From positions 1 to 63,259 of the forward strand of contig JACQCE010000084.1 in NCBI GenBank assembly GCA_016201765.1: a stretch of 63,259 nt of DNA. Reading direction: 5' to 3'. Below, piece by piece: positions 1 through 47,591 of the stretch. The notes under the pieces are model-generated. The model saw only the letters and a program-made list of their open reading frames with translations, ran no database searches and had not been told where the DNA came from. Positions within the stretch are counted from its first letter, which is position 1, and every line of letters starts with the position of its first letter. A program made the position numbers and the translations under genes. The stretch is from Nitrospirota bacterium (GTDB lineage: Bacteria > Nitrospirota > Nitrospiria > JACQCE01).

Positions 1-214
1 ACGCCGCCGTGGCGTCGCGATAATTGCCGGCCGCCCGGTGCTCCAGGCGGACCGACCGGTCGAACTCCAGGACCAGCGTCATGAGCAGCGCCACGACCAG
101 CAGCGCCAGGAGCAGCGCCGCGCCGCGTTCCGACCGCCCCGCCCGGCCCGTCCACTCGAACCGACGCCGCGCGCTTGTGGCGTCGACCGGCTCTTTGCTA
201 TACTGCGCCCGCAT
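1..214 (-). CDS. gspK: T2SS minor pseudopilin GspK, N-terminal fragment (gene runs off the left edge)
   Basis: Own translation of the minus strand from ATG 214: MRAQYSKEPVDATSARRRFEWTGRAGRSERGAALLLALLVVALLMTLVLEFDRSVRLEHRAAGNYRDATAA. It shows RG-x-ALL, a hydrophobic helix, then A-x-N-Y-RD, as in GspK N-termini. Absent from the ORF track because it is open at the window edge. Confidence 0.55.
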   Translation of the reverse strand, partial: MRAQYSKEPVDATSARRRFEWTGRAGRSERGAALLLALLVVALLMTLVLEFDRSVRLEHRAAGNYRDATAA

Positions 215-1113
215 GTCCGCGTCACGTTCTCGTGAACTCTCCGCCCGGCTCGGGGCCGTCCTCCTGTTGACGGCCGTGGCGCTCATGGCCGGTTGCGGCA
301 AGGGCGGCAAGGTGACGTTGCAGGCGCAGTTCGCCACCGGCACGAAGAATACGGCCGGCGACAACGGCGACGGCAGCGGTGACAGCTGGAACGACAACAA
401 ACTGACGCCGACCGGCTTCGCCATGGCCATTCAGAGCGCCACATTGACCGGCTCGGGCGTCAGCTTCACGATTTTCGATAAAGGCGATCCCGACGATGCA
501 CTCTTCATTCGACTGTATAACAGCCCCACCAAGATCACGGTTCCCCCCGACAATAATAATGATCTGGGCATCGGCACCTATGACACGCTCGAGCTGAAGG
601 TCGTTTTTTATGAAACGGCGATCGAGGTCGCTGATTCCACCGCCACCCATATCCGCCGGTTGCGGACCTATTTTCAAAATTATATCGAACCGCTCGCCAC
701 CAACAGCCCGACCGTCACGGCCCATGACCAGTTGATCAGTGACAGCGACATGACCGTGCCGCCGGAGACGGACGCCGATCCCACAGCGCTCGGCGCCGGC
801 GGTCGTGACCTGCGGTGGATCAACCCCGCCGACGGCAGTCGCTGCAGCACGCGGGCCGCCTGCGAAGACGCCGGCACTCCCTACCAGGTTGACATGACGC
901 ACTTTCCCACTGATCCCACTGACTACCCCACCGTGACGATCGGCATCCCGCACATCGTCGTCGATTCCAGCACGGATGCCAATTTCATCATCACGCTCAC
1001 AACCAAGATTCAAAATCTCTTTTTCTATGATGAAACCGATCCGGCCTCCCCCGCAGACACCCTGTTTTGGAATCGGTCCCCCCAACTTCTCCGCCACCGT
1101 CACCGAGCAGTAA
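213..1113 (+). CDS. putative secreted lipoprotein with an apparent +1 frameshift at the C6 run 1078-1083
   Basis: ATG 213. Signal peptide plus lipobox (LLLTAVALMAGC). Protein-like composition up to about residue 290. After the C6 run the +1 frame reads NFSATVTEQ-TAA (stop 1111-1113), 2 nt from the gspM stop. The in-frame continuation to 1814 is antisense to gspM and looks like junk. Confidence 0.5.
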
Positions 1114-1115
1114 CC

Positions 1116-1745
1116 CTACAACGGCCTGGGTTGACCGGGTTCCGCCGCCGGATTCGGCGCCGGAGCGTTCGGCTGGCCGGCCTTCAGTTGCCCTTCCTTC
1201 ATCTGCCCTTCCTTCATCTGATACACGGCCACGGTGATCGCGGCGTCAAGCAGATCGGGCTCGTTGAACCGGCTCTTGATCTCCAGCCGCTTGGTGCGCA
1301 ACCGCTCCGTCGGCTGCTCCAGCCCGGAAAGAAACGCCGTGATCTGTCCAAGCGTCACCTGTTCCAGCCGCACCTCCACGGCGAGTTCCTGATAGCGCTC
1401 AAAGGACGACTCCGGCTGCGGTTTGATCCCGGCCAGATGGGGTTTGCCGACTTTCTCCAGCACCGTCTTTTCCACAAAGGTCGAGAGGGAGAAATCGGCC
1501 GCCTGCGATCCCACGGCCCTGTCCACCTCCCCGCGGAGCCGGCCGTACTCCTCCTGCAATCGGGCCAGCTGCTCCAGCTCCTTCTGCTTCTGCGGGATCA
1601 ACCGGTCCAGCATGGCCATCTGCTGCAGCAGGGGATCGATCCCGAGCATATAGACCAGCAGGCCGGCCACGATCACCGCGCCCCAGCCGAGCACCAGCTG
1701 TTCCCGCCAGGAAAGCCGCCGCCACATTTCGCCGGCCGTCGTCAT
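1116..1745 (-). CDS. gspM: T2SS inner-membrane protein GspM-like
   Basis: About 200 aa with a single N-terminal TM (WGAVIVAGLLVYMLGI) and a coiled coil. Position directly after gspL with a 4-nt overlap. Tandem MKEGQ repeat near the C-terminus. Confidence 0.6.
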   Translation of the reverse strand: MTTAGEMWRRLSWREQLVLGWGAVIVAGLLVYMLGIDPLLQQMAMLDRLIPQKQKELEQLARLQEEYGRLRGEVDRAVGSQAADFSLSTFVEKTVLEKVGKPHLAGIKPQPESSFERYQELAVEVRLEQVTLGQITAFLSGLEQPTERLRTKRLEIKSRFNEPDLLDAAITVAVYQMKEGQMKEGQLKAGQPNAPAPNPAAEPGQPRPL

Positions 1746-3223
1746 CCGGTGTTCCCCGCCGGCGCGACCGGCGGCGCAAAGTTCAGTTCCACCTTGAAGC
1801 GCACGTGCTGCTGATCCGCGCTCATCCGCGCGTCGCTGATCGCCACCTGCGACGCCGACTCCACCTGCCGCAACAATTCCTTGACCCGGTCGACCGCCTC
1901 GAACGACCCGACCTCGCCTTCAAACCGGACGTCGGCGCCGGCGATCGTGATCCGGTCCACCTTCAACTCCGGCAGCGCCTGCAAGGCCTGCGTCAGGCGG
2001 TCCAGCACCAGCAAGGCGCCGGGCTCCCCTTCGCCGAGAAAGGCGGCGCGGCGGCTGAGCGTCTGCATCGCGCTCCTGGCCTGCTCCAGCTCATTGACCA
2101 CGCCCCGCACGTCCGTGAAGGTGCGGCTGAACAGCGCCCGCTGCTCCGCTTTGAGCGCGGAGTAGGCCCGCGCTTTCAGATAATAATGGGCGAATAGATC
2201 CGCGCCGGCCAGCAGGGCGAGCACCGTCAGCGCGGCGATCAGACCGACCGAGCGCCGACGGGCGCGACTGCGCTCCAGCGGCGACCGGAACTCCGCCTGG
2301 CGGAAATTGAATGATTCCTCCGGCGACCGCAGCGCCGCGCCGATCGCCTGGGCGAAAGGTCGCGCCGCGTCGCCCTCCCCCGCCGCATCCGTCGGGTGGA
2401 GCCAGGAGGGAATCTCTTCGATCAATGGCGCACCGAGCTCCCCGCTCAACCGGCCGGTCAGCCCGGAACCCTCGGCCTCACCGGCCCGGGCGCCGCAGAC
2501 GAGCAGCGCGGTCACCTCCGTCCGCTCCTCCAACGCGAAGAAATGCACGGCCCGTTTCAGTTCGACCAGCAATGCGTTGTCCCCGTCCGACGACCGGCCG
2601 GCCCGGCCGGACAAGGTGCGGGCATGCAGCAACCGCCCGCCGCGGCAGACGGCCAGTGTGGTCGATGCATCGCCCAGTTCGAGCACGGCGAGCGCGCTCC
2701 CCGATTCCGTGGTCGGTGGAACCACCGCGCGGGCCCAGCGGGCCAGGGCCGAGGGACCCACTTCCACGACCGCGGGATCGATCCCCGCTTCTTCGGCGAC
2801 CTCCAGCAGGCCGGTCAGCCGGTTTTTGGGCAGGACCACAGCCAGCACGCGGCTGCCGGTCGGCGTCATCTGCAGGGCCGCGGGGCTGATGACCACCTGG
2901 TCGAGGTCAAACGGCAGGAGCGATTCGATCTCGAAGGGCAGCACCTGGCTGACTTTCTGCGGATCTTGAAAGGGGACCGTCACGATCCGTGTGGTCACCT
3001 GATCGCCGGGGAGCGACAGGACGATCTGGTCGGCATGGAACCAACCCGCCGCCGCCAGCTCGCGCAGGGCCTGCACCACGGCCGACCGGTGATCGACCCG
3101 ATCGGGAGGGGGCAGCGGCCGCACCTGCCAGCCGTCGACCCTGGACTGGCGCAGGCCGCCGGTCACACGAACCAGCCGGATCGCCTCCGCGCCCATCTCC
3201 ACCCCGACGGTCCGGCGCGGCAT
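1742..3223 (-). CDS. gspL: T2SS protein GspL-like (PilM-like cytoplasmic domain, TM, PilN-like periplasmic domain)
   Basis: 493 aa. The N-terminal actin-like fold pattern (VGVEMGAEAIRLVRV...) is followed by a TM (VGLIAALTVLALLAGADLF) and a periplasmic domain. Synteny between gspJ and gspM. Confidence 0.65.
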   Translation of the reverse strand: MPRRTVGVEMGAEAIRLVRVTGGLRQSRVDGWQVRPLPPPDRVDHRSAVVQALRELAAAGWFHADQIVLSLPGDQVTTRIVTVPFQDPQKVSQVLPFEIESLLPFDLDQVVISPAALQMTPTGSRVLAVVLPKNRLTGLLEVAEEAGIDPAVVEVGPSALARWARAVVPPTTESGSALAVLELGDASTTLAVCRGGRLLHARTLSGRAGRSSDGDNALLVELKRAVHFFALEERTEVTALLVCGARAGEAEGSGLTGRLSGELGAPLIEEIPSWLHPTDAAGEGDAARPFAQAIGAALRSPEESFNFRQAEFRSPLERSRARRRSVGLIAALTVLALLAGADLFAHYYLKARAYSALKAEQRALFSRTFTDVRGVVNELEQARSAMQTLSRRAAFLGEGEPGALLVLDRLTQALQALPELKVDRITIAGADVRFEGEVGSFEAVDRVKELLRQVESASQVAISDARMSADQQHVRFKVELNFAPPVAPAGNTG

Positions 3224-3846
3224 CAGAATCCCTTGGTTGGAAGCGACACGAGGGTGCGAAACTCCTCCCGTGACCCTTCCGTCTCCGCAAATGTCAGCAC
3301 GAGTTCCACCAGATCAGGGAGGGCGTGCCGGTCGGTCGTGTTCCAGGCGGTCGCCCATTCTCCCTTGGCATAGAACCGGAATTCCACGCCGGCCAGCCCG
3401 TCGGCCATCATCACCCGCTCCAGTCCGCCGCTGAGCAAAAACGGATTCGATTGTTCCTCCCGCCACAATTGCACACCGTGCGGGCCCGACTCGGCCTGAT
3501 AGTTGATGACGGCCAGTTCGACGGCCGGCGGCTGCGTCGGATACCAGACGTGCGATCGGCTGGTGAACTGCAACCGCCCGATCGATCCCCCCCCCTGCTC
3601 CTCCGTCGCGCCCGTGAAGAAGGTTTCATCCCGTTGTTCATCCCATTCCGCGGCGGTCAATTCGTCGGACAGGCGCGACAGGACCACCCGGGCGGCCTGC
3701 GCGGAGGCGCCCCGCAGCGTCGCCCGATCGATGGCCGACGTGGTCGCCCGAAAGCTGGCGAAGACCGTGGCGGCCACCACGGCCAGCAGCGCCACGGCGA
3801 GCAACAGCTCCAACAGCGTAAAACCGTACGAAGATCCATTGCGCAT
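3223..3846 (-). CDS. gspJ: T2SS minor pseudopilin GspJ-like
   Basis: Prepilin N-terminal methylation motif YGFTLLELLLAVALL. About 200 aa. ATG 3846 is chosen over the longer ORF start 3945 because that would overlap gspI. Confidence 0.65.
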   Translation of the reverse strand: MRNGSSYGFTLLELLLAVALLAVVAATVFASFRATTSAIDRATLRGASAQAARVVLSRLSDELTAAEWDEQRDETFFTGATEEQGGGSIGRLQFTSRSHVWYPTQPPAVELAVINYQAESGPHGVQLWREEQSNPFLLSGGLERVMMADGLAGVEFRFYAKGEWATAWNTTDRHALPDLVELVLTFAETEGSREEFRTLVSLPTKGF

Positions 3847-3919
3847 CCGACGGAGGGATCGGGGGGGGATGAGGAGCTCGCCTCCCGATGGAGCGGGTGA
3901 TCGCGCAAACGCGGGCGGA

Positions 3920-4363
3920 TTACAGTGGCGTGGGTTCTTGCACATAGGTGACCAACGTGACCTGTTCCTGGCGGGCTCCCTCCGGCCAACTGACCGTCAC
4001 GGTCAACTGGGCCCAGTCGGACACCAGCGTGGGGTCCATCTGTTGATTCCAGGCGTAGCCCGGATAGTGCTCGCCGAAATCGCCTGATGATAGCTGGCGA
4101 TCCGCCTCGGCCACCCGGCTGAGCTCTTCAAGCTTCGCCTTGGCCAGCGACGTGGCGGTCACCAGATGGCGGGCATGCGCCTGCAAGGCGACATCGCGGT
4201 TGCGCAGCGTCAGCAATGCGATCAACGCCACGGCCAGCACGGCCACCGCCACCATGATCTCCAGCAGCGTAAAACCGGAGGAATGCCGGGAACTATGCTG
4301 TCCCACTTTCCACTTTCCACTTTCCACTCTCCACTCTCCACTTTCAACTTTCAACTTTCTCAC
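3920..4363 (-). CDS. gspI: T2SS minor pseudopilin GspI-like
   Basis: SGFTLLEIMVAVAVLAVALIAL prepilin motif and a GspI-sized body. GTG 4363 overlaps the gspH stop (GTGA). An alternative GTG at 4306 would give a normal 11-aa leader. Confidence 0.7.
   Translation of the reverse strand: MRKLKVESGEWRVESGKWKVGQHSSRHSSGFTLLEIMVAVAVLAVALIALLTLRNRDVALQAHARHLVTATSLAKAKLEELSRVAEADRQLSSGDFGEHYPGYAWNQQMDPTLVSDWAQLTVTVSWPEGARQEQVTLVTYVQEPTPL
4303..4358. repeat. tandem heptanucleotide repeat, 8 units (CCACTTT x3, CCACTCT x2, CCACTTT, CAACTTT x2)
   Basis: Read directly from the sequence. It lies in the 5' end or leader of gspI, immediately after the gspH stop. Confidence 0.9.
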
Positions 4364-4929
4364 GACCCGAACTCCACCTCCCCCGTGGACACCGTGACGC
4401 GCCCCGTCAGGGGATGGGGCACCACCGACAGCACGCCCTCCGACTGCATGCCGTTCCGTTGTTCCAGATGGAGGATCACGGCATCCAGCCGGCCGATGGG
4501 ATAGAAATAGAGCGCGGCCTCGCCGTCGGTGATCTTTTCCCGTTGCGCCGTGACCAGATCGTGAAACCGCACGCCGGCCGGCAGCGTTTCCGTGTCGTCA
4601 AGCGGCACGAAGACCATGGCGTTGTCGACCTGTTGCAGCACCTCCGGTTGGTATCGCTCGGTGCCGATGTCCACGCGAAGCCGGTAAATCTGACGGGTGA
4701 CCACGGCGCGCTCATACAGCCGTTCGATCTCGGCCGTCATCTGTCGGCCCGCTTTGCGCAATGAGCCCTCCGTCCAATGCTCCAGCACCGGATAGGCAAT
4801 CCCGACGAGCAGGACGATCAGCGCCATCACAACCACGAGCTCGATCAGCGTAAAGCCGGCTGGTCCGAAGACCCACTGGGGATAATTTCTCTTGTGCTTC
4901 ATTCGAAAATCGAAAATTCCCCTCTCCAT
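4360..4929 (-). CDS. gspH: T2SS minor pseudopilin GspH-like
   Basis: AGFTLIELVVVMALIVLLVGIA prepilin motif. Synteny after gspG. Alternative start at 4902 (MKHKR). Confidence 0.65.
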   Translation of the reverse strand: MERGIFDFRMKHKRNYPQWVFGPAGFTLIELVVVMALIVLLVGIAYPVLEHWTEGSLRKAGRQMTAEIERLYERAVVTRQIYRLRVDIGTERYQPEVLQQVDNAMVFVPLDDTETLPAGVRFHDLVTAQREKITDGEAALYFYPIGRLDAVILHLEQRNGMQSEGVLSVVPHPLTGRVTVSTGEVEFGS

Positions 4930-5377: not shown

Positions 5378-6661
5378 CTACCTCACCGTTTGGCTCATAT
5401 CGAAAATCGGCAGCAACACCGACAGCACGATGATCATGACGATGCCCCCCATAAACAGGATCAACACCGGCGTGAGCAACGAGGTCAGCACCCCGACCGT
5501 CGTCTCCACCTGATGATCGTACGCGTCGGCGACTTTTTTGAGCATCTGGGTCAACTCGCCGCTCCGCTCGCCGACCGCGATCATTTGAATGACGAAACCG
5601 GGGAACAGGCCGCTGCGCTGCAAAGGGCCGGCAATGCTCTCGCCTTCCCGGATGTTGTGCGCCGCCTCCTCGATCGCCCCCTCCAGCACCATGTTGCCCA
5701 CCACGCCCTTGACGATGCCCAGCGCCCGGAGCAACGGGATGCCCGACGCCAGGAGCGTGCTCAGCGTCAGGGCAAACCGGGAGAGCGCCACCATGCCGGC
5801 CAGGCGGCCGAAGATCGGCAGCTTCAACAGCCACCGGTCGCGCCGCAAACGGCCTTCAGGCGACGACAGGGCGCGTTGGGCCCACATCAGCCCCCCGGCC
5901 AGAAGCAGCGCCAGCGCCCACCAATAGTCGCGAAGCCACTGACTGGTTCCCAACAGGATCTGCGTCGGCAGGGGCAGGGCCTGATGCACGTCGGTAAACA
6001 CCTGGGCGATCTGCGGCATGACAAACAGGATCAGAAAGAACAGAATCGACAGGCTCACGACCAGCAGCACGACCGGATAGGTGACGGCCGCAAGGATGCG
6101 GCTCCGCAACCGGGCCTGGTATTCGAGCATTTCGGCCAGCCGCAGCAACATCACCCCCAGCGTGCCGCTCTGCTCCCCGGAGCGGACCATGTTCAAATAG
6201 AGCGACGAAAAGACATCCGGATGGAGGCTCAACGCGTCGGCCAGCGACGCCCCTTCCTTGACCCCCTCCCGGACGCCGATCCAGATTTTGCGGGCCTGTT
6301 GCCGGTCGATCTGTTCGATGAGCGAGGTCAATCCGTCCATGAGCGGCAGGCCGGCGCCGATCATCGTGCTCAATTGCCGGGTCATCACCGACAGCTCCGG
6401 CAACGACAGATGCGACCGCCGCCAGCGCCCCCACCGTTCGAACAGGTGAACCGCCGGCTGCCGGCCCGCCTCGGTCAGCGGCGTTCCCTGCGCCCCCCGG
6501 CCGTCCGGCGCTGCGGCGGGCGCGTCGCTCTCCAAGACATCGGTGGGGAAAATGCCGGTCTTGCGCAATTTGGACCGGGCCAGCCGGGGGCTGTCCGCAT
6601 CGATGACGCCGCTGACGGCGCGCCCTTCGGGGGTCAGCCCTTTGTATTCGTACACGCTCAT
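5378..6661 (-). CDS. gspF: T2SS inner-membrane platform protein GspF
   Basis: 427 aa with two GspF repeats and 3 TM segments. Starts MSVYEYKGLTPEGRAVSGVIDA, a typical GspF N-terminus. Confidence 0.9.
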   Translation of the reverse strand: MSVYEYKGLTPEGRAVSGVIDADSPRLARSKLRKTGIFPTDVLESDAPAAAPDGRGAQGTPLTEAGRQPAVHLFERWGRWRRSHLSLPELSVMTRQLSTMIGAGLPLMDGLTSLIEQIDRQQARKIWIGVREGVKEGASLADALSLHPDVFSSLYLNMVRSGEQSGTLGVMLLRLAEMLEYQARLRSRILAAVTYPVVLLVVSLSILFFLILFVMPQIAQVFTDVHQALPLPTQILLGTSQWLRDYWWALALLLAGGLMWAQRALSSPEGRLRRDRWLLKLPIFGRLAGMVALSRFALTLSTLLASGIPLLRALGIVKGVVGNMVLEGAIEEAAHNIREGESIAGPLQRSGLFPGFVIQMIAVGERSGELTQMLKKVADAYDHQVETTVGVLTSLLTPVLILFMGGIVMIIVLSVLLPIFDMSQTVR

Positions 6662-22989: not shown

Positions 22990-23048
22990 GAAATTGGGAC
23001 GTGTCCCTATTCTTGCCACGGGTGAATCCATTCAACGGACCCACTACC
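22990..23048. repeat. half copy (right arm) of the GGGACACGTCCC palindromic repeat element
   Basis: GAAATTGGGACGTGTCCCTATTCTTGCCACGGGTGAATCCATTCAACGGACCCACTACC aligns with the right half of the full copy at 45419-45557. Confidence 0.8.
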
Positions 23049-29154: not shown

Positions 29155-29267
29155 GGTAGTGGGTCAGTTTCACCGTGACCTGTCTCAAAAATAGGGACAC
29201 GTCCCAATTTCCTCATGCGGCGCGCGGCAATCAACGAAATTGGGACGTGTCCCTATTTTGGCCACGG
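29155..29267. repeat. truncated copy of the GGGACACGTCCC palindromic repeat element (right terminal repeat missing)
   Basis: About 90% identical to 45419-45531. It ends exactly at the zapA stop codon. Confidence 0.85.
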
Positions 29268-42064: not shown

Positions 42065-43237
42065 ATGAAAGTGAGAACACCGTGGTTGAGCGTCGTGGTT
42101 GTTGCATTTTCTTTGCTGCTGATCTGGGGCTGCGGCAGCGGGGGCACGGGAACATTGAGCGTCTCCATGACCGATGCCAGCCCCTGCGGCTTTGATCAGG
42201 TCAACGTGACCGTGTCCAGTGTTCGTGTTCATGAAAGTGCCACGGCAAATGAGAACGATGCGGGCTGGAGTGAGATCACGTTGTCCCCTCCTCAAAAGAT
42301 CAATCTGACCGCCCTGACGAACGGGGTATTGGCAGAGCTCGGGCAGACCGCCCTGCCGGCCGGCCATTACACCCAGCTCCGGCTGGTGCTGGTCCCCAAC
42401 AGTCCAAGTGAGCCGCTGAACAACTCCGTCGTGCCGACAGGGGGCTCCGAGGTTCCCCTTGAGACGCCCAGCGCCGTGCAGAGCGGAGTGAAACTCATTC
42501 ATGAATTTGATGTCGCCGCCGACACGCTGGTAGATCTGGTGCTGGATTTTGACGCCTGCCGGTCCATCGTCGCAAAGGGCAATGGCGGGTATCTCCTCAA
42601 ACCGGTCATTTCGGTCATCCCGACCATCGTCAGCGGCCAGATCGCCGGTGTGGTGGATCCGGCGCTATCCGGCTCAAATCCGGTGGTCTATGCCGAGCAG
42701 GACGGGCACGTGGTCAAATCCACCATCCCCGATGAGAACGGGAACTTCGTGCTGTCTCCCCTTCAAGAGAGCTCCACGGCCGGGGATTACGACGTCGTGA
42801 TCACCGCCGATGCCCACGTCACGGCGGCGATTCACTCGGTCCCTGTGACAGCCCAAGCCGCCACCACGGTCAGCACCAGCGGCGCACCGATCCAGTTGGA
42901 CGGGTCGACCACCCACTCCGTGAGCGGGACCGTCTTGCCCGTGAGTGCAGAAGCCTTGCTGCGCGCAACGCAGACCTTCTCGTCGGGCCCCGCCATCGAG
43001 GTTCGATCCGTTTCGGCCACTCTTTCGGACGGCTCCTATGTGATGACCCTGCCGACGGGCGACCCGTTGCTGGGAGACTTTGGCGGTGGAAGTCTGCCGA
43101 TTACGCTGACCGCCGATTCATCGATTGCCGGAAAATATGATTTGGAAGCTTCAGCCGTGGGATATCAGACCCAGAGCGTGCCGATTGACATCAGCAGCGG
43201 TGATATAACCAACCAGAATTTTACCCTAACACCGTAA
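42065..43237 (+). CDS. DUF4382-like lipoprotein with Ig/carboxypeptidase-regulatory-like repeats
   Basis: Signal peptide ending in a Cys (LLIWGCGSGG). LSVSMTDASP...VNVTVSSVRVH...LPAGHYTQLRLVL pattern. Confidence 0.6.
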   Translation: MKVRTPWLSVVVVAFSLLLIWGCGSGGTGTLSVSMTDASPCGFDQVNVTVSSVRVHESATANENDAGWSEITLSPPQKINLTALTNGVLAELGQTALPAGHYTQLRLVLVPNSPSEPLNNSVVPTGGSEVPLETPSAVQSGVKLIHEFDVAADTLVDLVLDFDACRSIVAKGNGGYLLKPVISVIPTIVSGQIAGVVDPALSGSNPVVYAEQDGHVVKSTIPDENGNFVLSPLQESSTAGDYDVVITADAHVTAAIHSVPVTAQAATTVSTSGAPIQLDGSTTHSVSGTVLPVSAEALLRATQTFSSGPAIEVRSVSATLSDGSYVMTLPTGDPLLGDFGGGSLPITLTADSSIAGKYDLEASAVGYQTQSVPIDISSGDITNQNFTLTP

Positions 43238-43258
43238 CAACCCTATAAGCTGTCTATA

Positions 43259-43292
43259 GATGACCCCGGGCGCAAGCCCGGGGTCATCTTCT
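43259..43292 (+). terminator. rho-independent terminator
   Basis: GATGACCCCGGGC-GCAA-GCCCGGGGTCATC followed by TTCT. Confidence 0.7.
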
Positions 43293-43416
43293 GGCCCTTA
43301 CTGGCAGGCGCACCTATAGTAGAATAGTAGAAACCCACGGGCAGAGCCGTCGAAGCGGAAACGCCAGCCGACACACCACAAACAACTTAAAATATTACAG
43401 GCTTTCATGGGGAAGA

Positions 43417-43491
43417 TGGTGGGCGATGCTGGTATCGAACCAGCGACCTCTTGCGTGTGAAGCAAGCGCTCTACCACTGAGCTAATCGCCC
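43417..43491 (-). tRNA. tRNA-Val (anticodon CAC), CCA encoded
   Basis: Manual cloverleaf: GGGCGAT TA GCTC AGTGGTA GAGC G CTTGC TTCACAC GCAAG AGGTC GCTGG TTCGATA CCAGC ATCGCCC A CCA. Confidence 0.9.
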
Positions 43492-43512
43492 GATCAGAAA
43501 CGTGACCGGGGC

Positions 43513-43541
43513 AGTATACCGCGCGTGGAATCTCTCGTCAA
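43513..43541 (-). promoter_or_regulatory. sigma70 consensus promoter of tRNA-Val
   Basis: Minus strand reads TTGACG-17 nt-TATACT, 21 nt upstream of the tRNA 5' end. Confidence 0.6.
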
Positions 43542-43548
43542 CGCATGC

Positions 43549-45240
43549 TCAGTGTGATCTGCTATAGAGGCTGCCGTCTTTTTCCAACGGATGGCGATCG
43601 AGTTTAGACTCCATAGCCTTGGAGATATCCAGCGTCATAAGAAAATCTGTTAGTTTATCCAGTGACGCGGAGTCCAGTTTGCTGATGAAGTCAGGCATCA
43701 AGCTCTTTCCCCCCGGTGACATCGGCTCGAATCCCTGCACAATAAACGCACTGGGAACCATAATCGACTCCATGATGTACTCCCTTGGTGTCTTTGCATG
43801 GGCTTTGCCGGCTTTCACAACCGCCTGATACTCCGGAGAGGCAATCCGCTGAGCAGCGCTCGTACCGCTCACCAATAACGGGCCGATTGCACCCATCCTG
43901 GCAAAGCTTACCTCTGGTATTTTATGACACGCAGCACATCCTAGCTTTGTAATGATCTGAACAGCCGAATCATCTGGTCCTATCGTCAGGTTTTTATCTT
44001 GCCGGGCCTGGTTCGTTAGAGGTAGATACACCCGTTCGGCCGGTAGAATAAACTTCTCATAGGCGGCCTGCATGACGCGAATGGGCGGCGGCTGTTGCCC
44101 ATCGTAAACATATAACCATCTGTTTACCAAAATCATTTCGCTGATCGTCAAGCTGATCGGGGGCCTATTAATTGTCGCGTAGGGACTTTCCCGATCATTG
44201 GTGCCTTTCACACCGAATCCCGGCACCACATAGCACGACGTGCAGACATTCGATTCCGCCAAATACTCCATGGCTGTCGTGGCCCGGCCGCTGCCCTGAA
44301 ACGCCTCGGTCTGTATGGTATCGGGATGCAGATACCCCGGTTCTTTAATCCGCGTGGCTGCCCGCTTGATGATGCCAGACAAATTTGGCGCCCGGTCACC
44401 GATATCAGTCGGTTTGAAGGTATGACAAAGAGGACATTGCCCTTTGCCAATCCCCCGTCCCGCTAAACCGGCTGACCCAAAAATAAGATACTCACCGGCT
44501 TTGACCAACTCCGCTTCTGACATTGATTCAAGTTTTGTCATCATCAAATCGGCATCGCCACCAACAGAGGCGGCACGATCAAGCTCATAAGAGTCTTTTA
44601 TCTCATTTGTTCTATCGACGATTTGAAGCAATGATTGTTCAGCTCCCAGACGAACACTGATGTCATCATCTTTTAGTGCGGAGACGAGTGGTCGGATTCG
44701 AGGGTCTCTCAACTGCCCCAGCGCTTCGGCAGCATGTAGGCGAACACCAACTGAGTAATCAGACAGCATGCCGATGATCAAATTGATCACGCGGTAATCA
44801 TCAAACCAAACCAACGCATCAATGGCTTCCCGACGAACAGCTGAGTCCTCGTCCTTTAAAACCAACATCAAGGGATCGATGGCCTGCTCCTTCTTGATCC
44901 GACCCAATGCCCGAGCAGCCAGCAAACGGACCCGAGAATCCCTGTCCTTCAGTGCATGGATGAGCAGTTTCACCGTTCGATCATCCGGCATTTCGGTCAA
45001 CGCGGCCACGGCAGTGGTTGCGACATCCGAATTCCCATCTTTGAGGGTGGCAATCAGCGGCTTTACAGCACGCGGATCCTTTAACTGATATAGCGTGACA
45101 ACAGCGAGGCGACGAGTTTCAGGATTGGCACTCTTTAAGTCAGACAACGCCGATTGAAGATCTCCCGCAACACCTTCAGCGGTACCGCCCAGACCACCAA
45201 CCAGTATGAGACACAATCCAACCAGGTAGCGGATTTTCAT
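43549..45240 (-). CDS. HEAT-repeat protein fused to a di-haem c-type cytochrome domain (secreted)
   Basis: Signal peptide. About six PBS-lyase/HEAT repeats (DPRAVKPLIATLKD..., RVRLLAARALGRI...). Two CxxCH motifs (CPLCH, CAACH). GAGGTGA Shine-Dalgarno 5 nt before the ATG. G+C is visibly lower than in the flanks. Confidence 0.75.
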   Translation of the reverse strand: MKIRYLVGLCLILVGGLGGTAEGVAGDLQSALSDLKSANPETRRLAVVTLYQLKDPRAVKPLIATLKDGNSDVATTAVAALTEMPDDRTVKLLIHALKDRDSRVRLLAARALGRIKKEQAIDPLMLVLKDEDSAVRREAIDALVWFDDYRVINLIIGMLSDYSVGVRLHAAEALGQLRDPRIRPLVSALKDDDISVRLGAEQSLLQIVDRTNEIKDSYELDRAASVGGDADLMMTKLESMSEAELVKAGEYLIFGSAGLAGRGIGKGQCPLCHTFKPTDIGDRAPNLSGIIKRAATRIKEPGYLHPDTIQTEAFQGSGRATTAMEYLAESNVCTSCYVVPGFGVKGTNDRESPYATINRPPISLTISEMILVNRWLYVYDGQQPPPIRVMQAAYEKFILPAERVYLPLTNQARQDKNLTIGPDDSAVQIITKLGCAACHKIPEVSFARMGAIGPLLVSGTSAAQRIASPEYQAVVKAGKAHAKTPREYIMESIMVPSAFIVQGFEPMSPGGKSLMPDFISKLDSASLDKLTDFLMTLDISKAMESKLDRHPLEKDGSLYSRSH

Positions 45241-45271
45241 GGCATCACCTCGATACAGGGGAGAAGAACAT

Positions 45272-45349
45272 CAGCGACCTCTTGCGTGTGAAGCAAGCGC
45301 TCTACCCTTCGTGGGAGGCCTCAGGGCAAGCCACTGAGCTAATCGCCCG
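45272..45349 (-). pseudogene. truncated tRNA-Val copy (positions 1 to about 52) with a 26-nt insertion in the D-loop and no T-arm
   Basis: CAGCGACCTCTTGCGTGTGAAGCAAGCGCTCTACC and ACTGAGCTAATCGCCCG are identical to 43441-43475 and 43476-43492 respectively. CTTCGTGGGAGGCCTCAGGGCAAGCC is inserted between them. Confidence 0.75.
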
Positions 45350-45374
45350 TCTTGATGGCTTGATTGGAGCGGTC

Positions 45375-45403
45375 ATTGTAATGAATGGCCGGAACGGTGT
45401 CAA
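45375..45403 (-). promoter_or_regulatory. sigma70 consensus promoter upstream of the broken tRNA-Val copy (now facing the cytochrome gene)
   Basis: Minus strand reads TTGACA-17 nt-TACAAT. Like the intact tRNA promoter, it is preceded by a GCATGCG string. Confidence 0.55.
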
Positions 45404-45418
45404 TCGCATGCCGTTGGC

Positions 45419-45557
45419 GGTAGTGGGTCAGTTTCACCGCAACCGGCTCAAAAATAGGGACACGTCCCAATTTCCTCGTGCGACGCACGGCACGCAACGA
45501 AATTGGGACGTGTCCCTATTTTTGCCACGGTGGAATCCAGCAAACTGACCCACTACC
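45419..45557. repeat. complete 139-bp palindromic repeat element (MITE/REP-like)
   Basis: 16-bp perfect terminal inverted repeats GGTAGTGGGTCAGTTT / AAACTGACCCACTACC. The inner 26-bp inverted repeat CAAAAATAGGGACACGTCCCAATTTC is itself centred on a near-palindrome. Confidence 0.85.
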
Positions 45558-45847: not shown

Positions 45848-45945
45848 ACACGCCACCGAAAGAGCAAACCCGTCGTAAGGCGGGGACGCAGAGCCACCGG
45901 TCCCGGACCGCCCTCACGGGATCGAGGAGCCGCCGAAGTGGATGT
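45848..45945 (+). promoter_or_regulatory. c-di-GMP-I (GEMM-I) riboswitch
   Basis: GCAAACC-CGTC-GTAA-GGCGG-GGACGCAGAGCCACCGG...GCCG compares with the Vc2 core GGCAAACC-hairpin(GAAA)-GGGACGCAAAGCCUCCGG. The P2 stem CCCGTC/GGCGGG is capped by a GNRA loop and a P3 stem follows. Confidence 0.75.
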
Positions 45946-46037: not shown

Positions 46038-47591
46038 ATGCCACGACCGACCTCCGTGCAGCCCCATCCGGACGCCACCCTCCTGATTGTCGATGACGAT
46101 CCGGGCGTGCAACAGTCCTGCCGTCTCCTCCTCCGCCGGCAGGGTTACCGCACGCTCGAAGCGCAGGACGGCGCCACGGCGCTGTGCATGGTCAAAACGC
46201 ACCCGATCGATGTCTGCCTGATCGACCTGACGCTCCCCGACGGCCACGGGCTCGACCTGCTCGAACGGCTGCGCGAACTGCAACCGCAGGCGCTGGCCAT
46301 TGTGATCACGGGCGATCAGGAGCGCGCGCCTTTACTTCGCTCGCTGCAACTGGGCGTGAAAAATTACCTCCACAAACCGTTTGCCGCGGAACAACTGGTC
46401 CATATGGTCGATCACGCCATCGAGGAGGACCGGCAGGCGAAAAACCGCATCCGCGCGAATATCGTCGGCCCGCTGTTCGAACTGAGCGAACGGTTTCTCT
46501 CCGACATCGATTTGCACGCAACGTTCCAGGGCCTCGTCCAGATGGCCGCGCAGCAGACGGACGCGGACACGGCCTCGCTCATGGTGCTCGACGACTCGAC
46601 GCAGACGCTCGCGATCGAGGCGGCCGTCGGCCTGCCGGCGGACATTGTCGCCGCGGCGCGCCTCCGGCTGGGCGAGGGGATCGCCGGCTGGGTCGCCGCG
46701 ACGGGGGAACCGCTGATCCTGATTCCCGGCGTCTGCGCGCACGCGGATGTGCGGGGACGCCTGCTGCGCCGGGAGTTGACCGCAACGCTCTGCGTGCCCC
46801 TGCTGCGCAAGGACCGGGTGGTGGGAGTGCTCAACGTGGGCAAACACCGTCCCGGCGCCTCGTTCACACAGGGCGACATCGAGATGGTCTCGGTGCTCTG
46901 CCGGCAGGCGGCCGTGCTGGTCGACAACGTCCGGCTGTTCAACGAGGTGTCGGCAAAGGTCGGCGAGCTGGAAACCGCGCATTTCGACACGATCAAGGCG
47001 CTCGCCGGCGCGCTGGAGAGCAAGGATTTCTACACGCGCCACCACAGCGACCGCACCGTGGTCCACGCCGAACTGACCGGACAACGACTCGGTCTGTCGA
47101 TCGAGGAGCGGCTGCACCTGCGCTACGCCGCGATCCTGCACGACATCGGCAAGATCGGCATCCCGGAGACCATCCTCAACAAGCCGGCCCGTCTGACGGA
47201 GGAGGAATACGCGCTCATGAAGCGCCACCCGCTCATCGGCGCGGCCATCGTGGAGCACGTCGCCTTTTTACGCCCCGTGCTGCCGCTGATCCGCCACGAT
47301 CACGAACGGTGGGACGGCCTCGGCTATCCCGACGGGCTCCAGGGGGAGGCGATTCCCATCGGTGCGCGGATCATCGCCGTGGTGGACGCCTATGACGCCA
47401 TGGCGGTCGACCGGATCTATCGCAAAGCGCCGGGCCACGAGTTCGCGCTGTGTGAACTCCGCCGCTGCGCCGGCACACAGTTCGATCCCGCGGTGGTCGA
47501 GGCGTTTTTATCGATTGTCATGCACCCCGGTTCCGGGCCGCCGGCGACCGATCACGAACGCGGCGGCACGGGGGTGTTTTACCCCAACTGA
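46038..47591 (+). CDS. response regulator with REC-GAF-HD-GYP domains (c-di-GMP phosphodiesterase)
   Basis: REC (LLIVDDD..., CLIDLTLPDG, KPF), a GAF region, and HD-GYP (HHSDRT, LHDIGKIGIP, HHERWDGLGYPDGL). Confidence 0.85.
   Translation: MPRPTSVQPHPDATLLIVDDDPGVQQSCRLLLRRQGYRTLEAQDGATALCMVKTHPIDVCLIDLTLPDGHGLDLLERLRELQPQALAIVITGDQERAPLLRSLQLGVKNYLHKPFAAEQLVHMVDHAIEEDRQAKNRIRANIVGPLFELSERFLSDIDLHATFQGLVQMAAQQTDADTASLMVLDDSTQTLAIEAAVGLPADIVAAARLRLGEGIAGWVAATGEPLILIPGVCAHADVRGRLLRRELTATLCVPLLRKDRVVGVLNVGKHRPGASFTQGDIEMVSVLCRQAAVLVDNVRLFNEVSAKVGELETAHFDTIKALAGALESKDFYTRHHSDRTVVHAELTGQRLGLSIEERLHLRYAAILHDIGKIGIPETILNKPARLTEEEYALMKRHPLIGAAIVEHVAFLRPVLPLIRHDHERWDGLGYPDGLQGEAIPIGARIIAVVDAYDAMAVDRIYRKAPGHEFALCELRRCAGTQFDPAVVEAFLSIVMHPGSGPPATDHERGGTGVFYPN

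Follow-up and report, generated by a model that had tools for sequence, protein, structure and literature searches.

It has been known that integration into a tRNA gene normally replaces the 3′ part of the gene, which keeps its own promoter (PMC8371274; there after Reiter 1989, Campbell 1992, Williams 2002). The pTN3-like integrases of Thermococcales, which are of the SSV type and are called 'suicidal', use the 5′ half of a tRNA gene as their chromosomal attachment site, attB (Cossu 2017, PMC5495485; PMC8371274). In the pTN3-like case, the rebuilt tRNA is transcribed from a promoter of the element, and the tRNA promoter may transcribe the adjoining integrase fragment int(C) (PMC8371274). Such integration into a 5′ half is exceptional, belonging to the archaeal pTN3-like integrases and being seldom met in bacteria (PMC8371274). 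Here, we describe a tRNA-Val(CAC) locus on the minus strand of a 63 kb Nitrospiria contig with 64.0% GC (JACQCE010000084.1; the window hereafter means this whole stretch of 63,259 nt, and all positions are in its numbering), in which an intact tRNA-Val gene and a broken copy of its 5′ part bracket a single, apparently foreign cytochrome c gene. The reading that we favor, at somewhat better than even odds, is that a small foreign DNA recombined within the 5′ part of the tRNA-Val gene and swapped its promoters.

The intact, functional-looking tRNA-Val(CAC) gene lies at 43417-43491 (minus strand), encodes its CCA end, scores 73.1 bits in Rfam, and is the only tRNA that ARAGORN calls in the whole window. 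The truncated copy lies at 45272-45349 (minus strand), 1857 nt upstream of the intact gene, and consists of two parts that form direct repeats with it. First, the base at position −1 (C) and nt 1-18 of tRNA-Val (45331-45349, minus strand) are 100% identical to 43474-43492; the repeat finder reports them as a perfect 19-nt direct repeat with a spacing of 1857 nt. Second, nt 17-51 (45272-45306, minus strand), which comprise the 3′ strand of the D stem, the anticodon arm, the variable loop and the first four bases of the T stem, are 100% identical to 43441-43475 and form a perfect 35-nt direct repeat with a spacing of 1831 nt. Since the two spacings differ (1857 against 1831 nt), a 26-nt insertion lies at 45305-45330, where it interrupts the D loop. 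When we compared the copies base by base, the common block comprised the −1 base (C) and nt 1-51 of the gene, nt 51 being standard tRNA position 52. Past this block, the intact gene continues with GTTCGATAC and the broken copy with ATGTTCTTCT. The 3′ part of the tRNA (GTTCGATACCAGCATCGCCCACCA; T loop and 3′ acceptor strand) is found at a single place in the window and is thus missing from the broken copy, which is called as a tRNA by neither ARAGORN nor Rfam and does not make up a complete cloverleaf. A perfect identity over 52 nt cannot be chance. The initial annotation of this stretch, which also suggested a tRNA finder as a check, had described a truncated 5′ copy in the same orientation upstream of the intact gene, lacking the T arm and identical to it save for a 26-nt insertion in the D loop. 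The two perfect repeats, the single-copy 3′ part and the ARAGORN call bear out this description; the shared block of 52 nt plus one flanking nt that it gave is real, but one base too long (51 nt plus the −1 base).

The 26-nt segment (CTTGCCCTGAGGCCTCCCACGAAGGG; 45305-45330, minus strand) is unique in the window, and no part of it of 11 nt or longer recurs elsewhere there. It is absent from all fetched loci and from the tRNA-Val genes of the four Nitrospirota loci compared below (L003, L004, L091 and L096). Its first part resembles an imperfect inverted copy of the adjoining CTCAGTGGC, a likeness whose excess over chance could not be demonstrated. The segment may have arrived with the incoming DNA rather than by a later insertion.

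Relatives were collected by a scan of one genome per species with the neighboring 960-aa FAD/FeS oxidase; the matches were exclusively from Nitrospirota, and the best loci had 75-82% protein identity. Two of them, L003 (JBGPIL010000004) and L004 (JBFMAJ010000063), show the empty site, in which a methyltransferase gene, the RR-GAF-HD gene, one intact tRNA-Val(CAC) and the FAD oxidase gene follow one another and no cytochrome gene is present. The window aligns with L003 at 84% nucleotide identity from 49982 to 45679, and then again across the promoter and the 5′ part of the tRNA. Judged by FAD oxidase identities, L004 is the outgroup to the window, L003 and L002/L091. Since L004 stands outside this group, the promoter arrangement that it shares with L003 (class A) is ancestral and the broken copy is the native remnant. 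The ancestor had one tRNA-Val(CAC) between the RR-GAF-HD gene and the FAD oxidase, driven by TTGACA-17-TACAAT; this native promoter and the first 18 nt of the gene now lie 1857 nt from the rest of the working tRNA gene. The suggestion of the initial annotation that foreign DNA had been inserted into or next to a tRNA gene is supported by these empty sites, the ancestral promoter and the compositional outlier described below. It had proposed an empty-site comparison and named two functional tRNAs without a compositional shift in relatives as the observation that would speak against it; no relative showed this, and L003 and L004 have a single tRNA-Val between the same flanking genes.

On the other side of the intact tRNA, a spacer (43238-43416) with a 14-bp perfect hairpin at 43258-43289 leads to a convergent DUF4382 gene (42065-43237, plus strand), which lies between the tRNA and the FAD oxidase and is absent from L003 and L004. 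The pair of DUF4382 and FAD oxidase genes is common to the window, L002, L091-95 and L099/L100. The latter two, which are closest for the right side (84% nucleotide identity), have the 3′ end of tRNA-Val, a short spacer, DUF4382 and the FAD oxidase in this order. The 3′ part of the tRNA is thus native, as is all the DNA to the right of it, the spacer probably included, and from the gene order in L099/L100 it follows that the added DNA is confined to 45330-43474, or to this interval shifted by one repeat unit. Two candidates were rejected here: DUF4382 as part of the insert, given its FAD oxidase adjacency in L002, L091-95 and L099 and its GC content at third codon positions (GC3) of 0.72, and the low GC of the spacer as a foreign sign, 53% being that of native intergenic DNA. 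For the left side, no closer relative covered the site among those found: the contig of L102 (RR-GAF-HD protein 91% identical) ends 122 nt before the gene, and those of L105 and L106 are too short. In L103 (RR-GAF-HD protein 81% identical), positions 1-4700 hold YaeQ, a MazE/PIN toxin-antitoxin pair and other genes, with no tRNA-Val. The RR-GAF-HD neighborhood is a rearrangement hotspot in the clade.

A promoter scan found the two best promoter-like sites of the region in front of the two tRNA copies. P2, TTGACA-17-TACAAT (45375-45403, minus strand; 11/12 matches), stands upstream of the broken copy, and P1, TTGACG-17-TATACT (43513-43541, minus strand; 10/12 matches), upstream of the intact gene. 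P1 starts 7 nt past the stop codon of the cytochrome gene, which is 57 nt from the intact tRNA. When we aligned the 75 nt upstream of each copy with the tRNA-Val promoters of the relatives, the upstream region of the broken copy matched L003 (z=10.6) and L004 (z=6.5), whereas that of the intact copy gave z=0.2 with L003, 1.6 with L004 and 0.3 with the upstream region of the broken copy. Homology to the L003 and L004 promoters is thus confined to the promoter of the broken copy, which makes the broken copy the remnant of the ancestral gene. Between P2 and the L003 promoter, which are class A orthologues, 14/17 spacer bases agree (z=10.6). P1 has a weak similarity to the tRNA-Val promoter of L091 (z=3.3, 7/17 spacer bases); with that of L096 the two hexamers alone match (z=1.4), and L091 against L096 gives z=4.0. 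These three promoters have TTGACx-17-TATACT (class B) in common and are otherwise weakly similar. The motif GCATGCG adjoins the −35 hexamers of both tRNA-Val promoters in the window (43542-43548 and 45405-45411, minus strand); the whole window has 7 copies, against about 27 expected from shuffles. The pair could be a shared regulator site or a trace of recombination, the promoters being otherwise unrelated. Consensus promoters at both copies, each preceded by GCATGCG, were already noted in the initial annotation, which took the one upstream of the broken copy to be the old tRNA promoter; the scan and the alignments with L003 and L004 agree with this.

The gene enclosed by the two copies (43549-45240, minus strand) encodes 563 aa with a signal peptide, HEAT repeats from about aa 30 to 210 and, at the C-terminus, a dihaem cytochrome c domain with the CxxCH motifs CPLCH and CAACH (Pfam HEAT_2, 6e-31; Cytochrom_C, 1e-4). 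Its predicted product is a secreted HEAT-repeat dihaem cytochrome c. The closest match among 5.8 billion proteins has 56-57% identity, the nearest homologues with the HEAT fusion are 55-57% identical, and more than 100 Nitrospirota homologues are 46-62% identical over the C-terminal 55-60% of the protein (about 320 aa), some of these C-terminal-domain homologues bearing the names 'nitric oxide reductase' or 'cytochrome c2'. The homologue P0005 adjoins a Cyt_bd_oxida_I (bd-like oxidase) gene in a cytochrome c gene cluster; the window gene stands alone between the two tRNA copies, outside any such cluster. The contexts of the closest homologues P0002, P0003 and P0005 contain no tRNA, and the contigs carrying the closest homologues have 53-61% GC. 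GC is 51.7% in the gene and 64.0% over the whole window, and the GC3 of the gene is 0.54 against 0.63-0.89 in the 54 other likely genes, which makes this gene the sole compositional outlier among the 55 open reading frames (ORFs) of the 63 kb; the composition and codon profile proposed earlier therefore singles out this gene, and the impression by eye that it is richer in AT than the window holds, with the estimate of 45-50% GC slightly low. The gene was not found in 80 related loci. Its composition and distribution indicate that it is foreign and was probably acquired horizontally.

The junction and leader between the broken tRNA and the cytochrome gene are 31 nt long (45241-45271, minus strand) and contain the Shine-Dalgarno sequence GAGGTGA at 45245-45251, as the initial annotation had read it. 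From 45375 to the ATG at 45240, the scan found no other promoter-like and no terminator-like site on the coding strand, as would be expected of a read-through path, and this is consistent with the cytochrome gene being now driven by the old tRNA promoter (promoter capture). Transcription from the native promoter would give the cytochrome mRNA a leader of about 128 nt, composed of the 20-nt native tRNA leader, the 78-nt interrupted fragment and the 31 nt. RNase P should not process a fragment that lacks the T arm and the 3′ acceptor strand, and therefore its processing is not expected here. Read-through from the cytochrome gene into the intact tRNA is likely on the same kind of reading, because only 7 nt separate the stop codon from P1 and no terminator lies between them. 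A mini-ORF of 8 codons starts at the ATG of the junction (45245-45271, minus strand; ATG TTC TTC TCC CCT GTA TCG AGG TGA). It is preceded at 6 nt by a tRNA-derived AGAGG, and its stop codon falls within the cytochrome gene's Shine-Dalgarno sequence; this arrangement may be a coincidence or may provide translational coupling.

How does this locus compare with the described systems? As in integrative elements generally, the insert is bounded by direct repeats of tRNA sequence, has an empty site in relatives and deviates in composition. It shares with classical bacterial tRNA islands and prophages these same features together with a regenerated tRNA. It differs from them in several respects: the 5′ part and not the 3′ part is repeated, the working tRNA has a new promoter, no integrase gene was found beside the putative attachment (att) site, the cargo is a single gene of 1.7 kb, and one of the repeats has a 26-nt interruption. 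The pTN3-like elements are closer at the sequence level, since they have the same 5′-half polarity, an element-borne promoter for the rebuilt tRNA and a displaced promoter pointing into the element. However, they are archaeal plasmids or viruses of many kb, with attP in an integrase gene that is split into int(N) and int(C), whereas here the host is bacterial and the repeats have no int fragments beside them; the ORF past the broken copy, behind the old promoter, is the HEAT-cytochrome c gene. Islands associated with dusA likewise replace the 5′ end of their target with their own 5′ sequence and a putative promoter and leave the old 5′ end behind, but their target is protein-coding, their size is large and they have a dedicated integrase family (PMC4482086). 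In a known case of tRNA-promoter switching, a protein gene that comes to lie directly behind a tRNA promoter, with no terminator between them, is expressed from that promoter, as may have happened here; that case is a native 9.2-kb duplication whose effect was confirmed with a reporter, whereas in ours the gene is foreign, the tRNA is truncated and the switch is predicted. CIME-type elements are flanked by att sites, lack an integrase and are mobilized in trans. They resemble our locus in having repeats around a short cargo without recombination genes; a cognate integrase-bearing element is not known for the window genome, and mobilization would be hypothetical here. Taken together, the locus works like the 5′-half type, a known but rare kind, and is a genuine though fairly ordinary scar of integration, unusual in its front-end polarity.

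Based on these observations, we suggest the following course of events. The incoming DNA would have been about 1.86 kb of foreign sequence, most simply a circle, with P1, a leader, a tRNA-Val-derived segment, the 31 nt and the cytochrome gene. A single crossover with the chromosomal gene inside the common 5′ sequence would have inserted it in the manner of Campbell. The 19-nt direct repeat is a possible crossover segment; in that case a single event would suffice, the 26 nt and the missing T arm would come from a degenerate tRNA-like segment of the incoming DNA, and excision across the repeat would restore exactly an empty site of the L003 type. If the crossover fell in the 35-nt block instead, the 26 nt would be a later insertion. 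Either way the promoters would be swapped: incoming P1 would transcribe a tRNA made of incoming 5′ and native 3′ sequence, and P2, the native stable-RNA promoter, would read through the tRNA-derived leader into the cytochrome gene and probably onward into the tRNA. For the enzyme, a site-specific recombinase acting in trans, with a tyrosine-type integrase as first choice, is a tentative proposal that we would put at about one in three; RecA-dependent Campbell insertion on short identity comes second and is rather unlikely. The enzyme, the donor and the expression from the old promoter are thus what we infer for this locus. The initial annotation spoke of a duplication of the 5′ part, which is not established. 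Since a non-homologous, correctly spaced P1 stands before the intact tRNA, a plain target-site duplication is insufficient, and the incoming DNA would have carried a promoter and a tRNA-Val-like sequence; the second copy more likely came with it.

Here, we need to consider several points that weigh against insertion by such a crossover. First, no recombinase domain turned up when the ORFs at 10.8-38 kb and 39-49 kb were scanned with Pfam, and the stretch at 47.5-58 kb consists of syntenic housekeeping DNA. In the insert itself, the cytochrome gene is the sole plausible gene between the repeats and no integrase was seen, the scan leaving out two ORFs of 80 and 88 aa nested in that gene. The earlier remark that no integrase remains thus stands for the scanned ORFs in and near the insert. 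Second, when 241 million metagenome contigs were searched for the identity block with any base except G after it, three contigs with an unrelated 3′ fragment came back; viral contigs gave no donor or second instance, and phage and plasmid collections gave generic tRNA or HEAT matches alone. Third, an integrative unit of one gene and 1.86 kb is unusually small. Fourth, the intact gene with its −1 base and its 9-nt 3′ flank (TCTTCCCCA) is 100% identical over 85 nt to that of L091, and import of a whole gene or repeated exchange fits this identity better than a crossover within the first 18 nt. Fifth, this reading does not account for GCATGCG beside both −35 hexamers. Finally, expression from the old promoter is a prediction from the DNA, and the leader and the fragment fold no better than shuffled sequences (z=0.46 and −0.12, respectively).

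The fourth of these points leads to the rival that survives best, although we hold it to be unlikely, at perhaps one chance in five. A linear chromosomal fragment, donated by a Nitrospirota bacterium of lower GC and bearing the cytochrome gene and, behind it, the donor's complete tRNA-Val, would have been captured by break repair or homology-facilitated illegitimate recombination, its right end joined by homology in the conserved tRNA and its left end joined illegitimately at tRNA nt 51. Neither site-specific recombination nor a true duplication would be needed, and the event would be tolerated since the donor tRNA replaces the broken one. Nt 1-51 of tRNA-Val(CAC) are identical in L003, L091 and L096 and have one mismatch in L004, and with such near-invariance a donor gene would be identical without any att site. 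The hexamers of P1 and a weak similarity are common to other Nitrospirota tRNA-Val promoters (L091, z=3.3; L091 against L096, z=4.0), and the intact gene with its 9-nt 3′ flank equals that of L091. The failure to find an integrase, the 53-61% GC of the contigs with the closest cytochrome homologues, and the 'AT' before GTTC at the junction, which could be filler, would also fit a linear capture. However, to keep nt 1-51 of the host upstream, this course needs either a homology anchor of at most 24 nt or two target copies, the 26-nt interruption demands a second event, and P0002, P0003 and P0005 have no adjoining tRNA. We therefore keep the crossover within the 5′ part as the preferred reading.

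An improbable alternative is that a tandem pair of tRNA-Val genes, one with a class A and one with a class B promoter, existed beforehand, and that the cytochrome gene later entered between the two, trimming the upstream copy at its 3′ end, so that the insertion neither duplicated nor supplied anything. L091 lends it some support, since its tRNA-Val has the promoter TTGACC-17-TATACT, the same flanks at −1 and +9, and the same side relative to DUF4382 and the FAD oxidase. The sequence past the break (TCTTCTCCCCTGT) also looks loosely like the 3′ flank of the intact gene (TCTTCCCCATGA), but this likeness is not significant (z=−0.1) and was rejected. None of the sampled relatives has two copies: L003 and the outgroup L004 have one of class A, and L091 has one of class B. 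Moreover, the similarity of P1 to the L091 promoter (z=3.3, 7/17) is far below that of class A orthologues at the same divergence (z=10.6, 14/17), and the foreign gene ends 7 nt from the −35 hexamer of P1.

Slimmer still is the chance of an assembly artefact or another resolution of the repeats. The chromosome would then have P2 together with a tRNA that holds the 26-nt insert and whose 3′ part is complete, and the piece running from P1 over the tRNA 5′ part to the cytochrome gene would form a 1.83-kb circle of its own or a tandem array, or would belong to another organism and have been joined via the 35-nt repeat. As an independent assembly we used the Logan unitigs (k=31) of run SRR12113410. 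Its unitig L001 covers 45301..43463 at 100% identity and includes the break junction and the entire gene, along with the second promoter and the beginning of the tRNA. In its unitig L090, also at 100% identity, the ATP synthase B gene, the FAD oxidase and DUF4382 are present, as is the spacer as far as 43470. These unitigs reproduce at 100% identity the junctions GCTG/ATGTTC, TGA-P1-tRNA start and tRNA 3′ part-spacer-DUF4382. Both unitigs end inside the 35-nt repeat, as k=31 predicts, so that the junctions are confirmed, the pairing of entry and exit across the repeat is ambiguous, and these unitigs cannot tell the resolutions apart. On the other hand, ordinary reads, and the large k-mers used for contigs of this size, span 35 nt, both flanks are syntenic with relatives, every junction recurs in the independent assembly, and under the alternative the chromosomal tRNA-Val would be disrupted in its D loop. 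It is very hard to credit that the truncated copy is no scar but a functional RNA element kept by selection, for example a regulatory leader resembling a tRNA: its perfect conservation against the gene and its position in the 5′ untranslated region would suit it, but folding no better than shuffled sequence led us to reject a structured leader RNA, Rfam has no family for the broken copy (nothing was matched beyond the intact tRNA and a riboswitch farther upstream), no second instance was found in the 241 million metagenome contigs, and the identity is explained by a recent origin, as the composition of the cargo gene has still not drifted toward the host.

We also observed tRNA-Val rearrangements in other Nitrospirota contigs. 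In L091 (11682-11766, minus strand), tRNA-Val is followed directly by 4.4 kb with spermine-synthase-like and RMD1-like genes, against 117 nt at this place in the window; the window and L091 enter the variable region at the same base, and the closer relative L099 has another flank. In L096, a lower-GC (55%) Nitrospirota contig, a 23-nt 3′ fragment of a window-type tRNA-Val, beginning at standard position 54, lies by an RMD1-like gene (3166-3191, minus strand), and 2.8 kb off and inverted there is an intact tRNA-Val with a different T arm and the promoter TTGACG-17-TATACT (6021-6095, plus strand); both are the same in L097. The breakpoint of the L096 fragment is 1-2 nt from the break in the window, and by its arrangement L096 appears to mirror the window, with a truncated native gene and a replacement copy. 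These arrangements suggest that tRNA-Val(CAC) may be a recurrent recombination site in the clade. It is a long shot that Nitrospiria harbor a family of tiny integrase-less cassettes whose attachment site is a promoter and a mimic of the tRNA-Val 5′ part and which swap promoters on insertion. If there were such a family, the cargo would gain a strong stable-RNA promoter and the cassette's own promoter would keep an essential tRNA alive; the class B promoters of L091 and L096, the 85-nt identity and the breakpoints at positions 52 and 54 would be traces of repeated activity. A different observation comes from L087 (6844-6897; also L088 and L089), contigs of a 66% GC organism from other metagenomes, which have a tRNA-Val(CAC) 3′ fragment running from the 3′ strand of the D stem to CCA; its T arm is degenerate and the 5′ part is lacking. 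This has the look of a displaced 3′ fragment of the classical sort and bears no relation to the window case.

Two further elements lie near the locus. A palindromic element resembling a miniature inverted-repeat transposable element (MITE) occupies 45419-45557; its outer arms are perfect over 16 nt (GGTAGTGGGTCAGTTT), and its inner arms measure 44 nt. Compared with L003 and L004, it has been inserted immediately upstream of the native promoter of the tRNA. The window has two more copies, at about 29155-29262 and 22991-23048, one without an outer arm and one partial, and no transposase was seen. At 45853-45937 (plus strand) there is a cyclic di-GMP-I (c-di-GMP-I) riboswitch aptamer (RF01051; 45.6 bits against a gathering score of 35); the model of the GGC variant reaches 48.5 bits there, under its cut-off (59). 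About 100 nt downstream of the aptamer, whose sequence is highly conserved in L003 and L004, comes the RR-GAF-HD gene (46038-47591), which encodes a c-di-GMP phosphodiesterase of the HD-GYP type. A c-di-GMP sensor before a predicted c-di-GMP-degrading enzyme suggests a feedback loop.

The limits of the case are that our account of the mechanism is a reconstruction, that the instance is so far unique and that it opens no long-standing question. Within them, the locus is a clean case, in a bacterium and backed by comparison with relatives, of a tRNA gene with an insertion in its 5′ part, where the textbook rule is that the 3′ part is replaced and the exceptions known so far are the pTN3-like elements of archaea and a small number of cases in bacteria. 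Island mapping by programs that seek displaced 3′ tRNA fragments beside integrases would miss such a locus. For the organism, our reading of this DNA implies that a horizontally acquired respiratory gene could arrive already wired to a strong promoter, which may bear on how electron transport has diversified in Nitrospirota.

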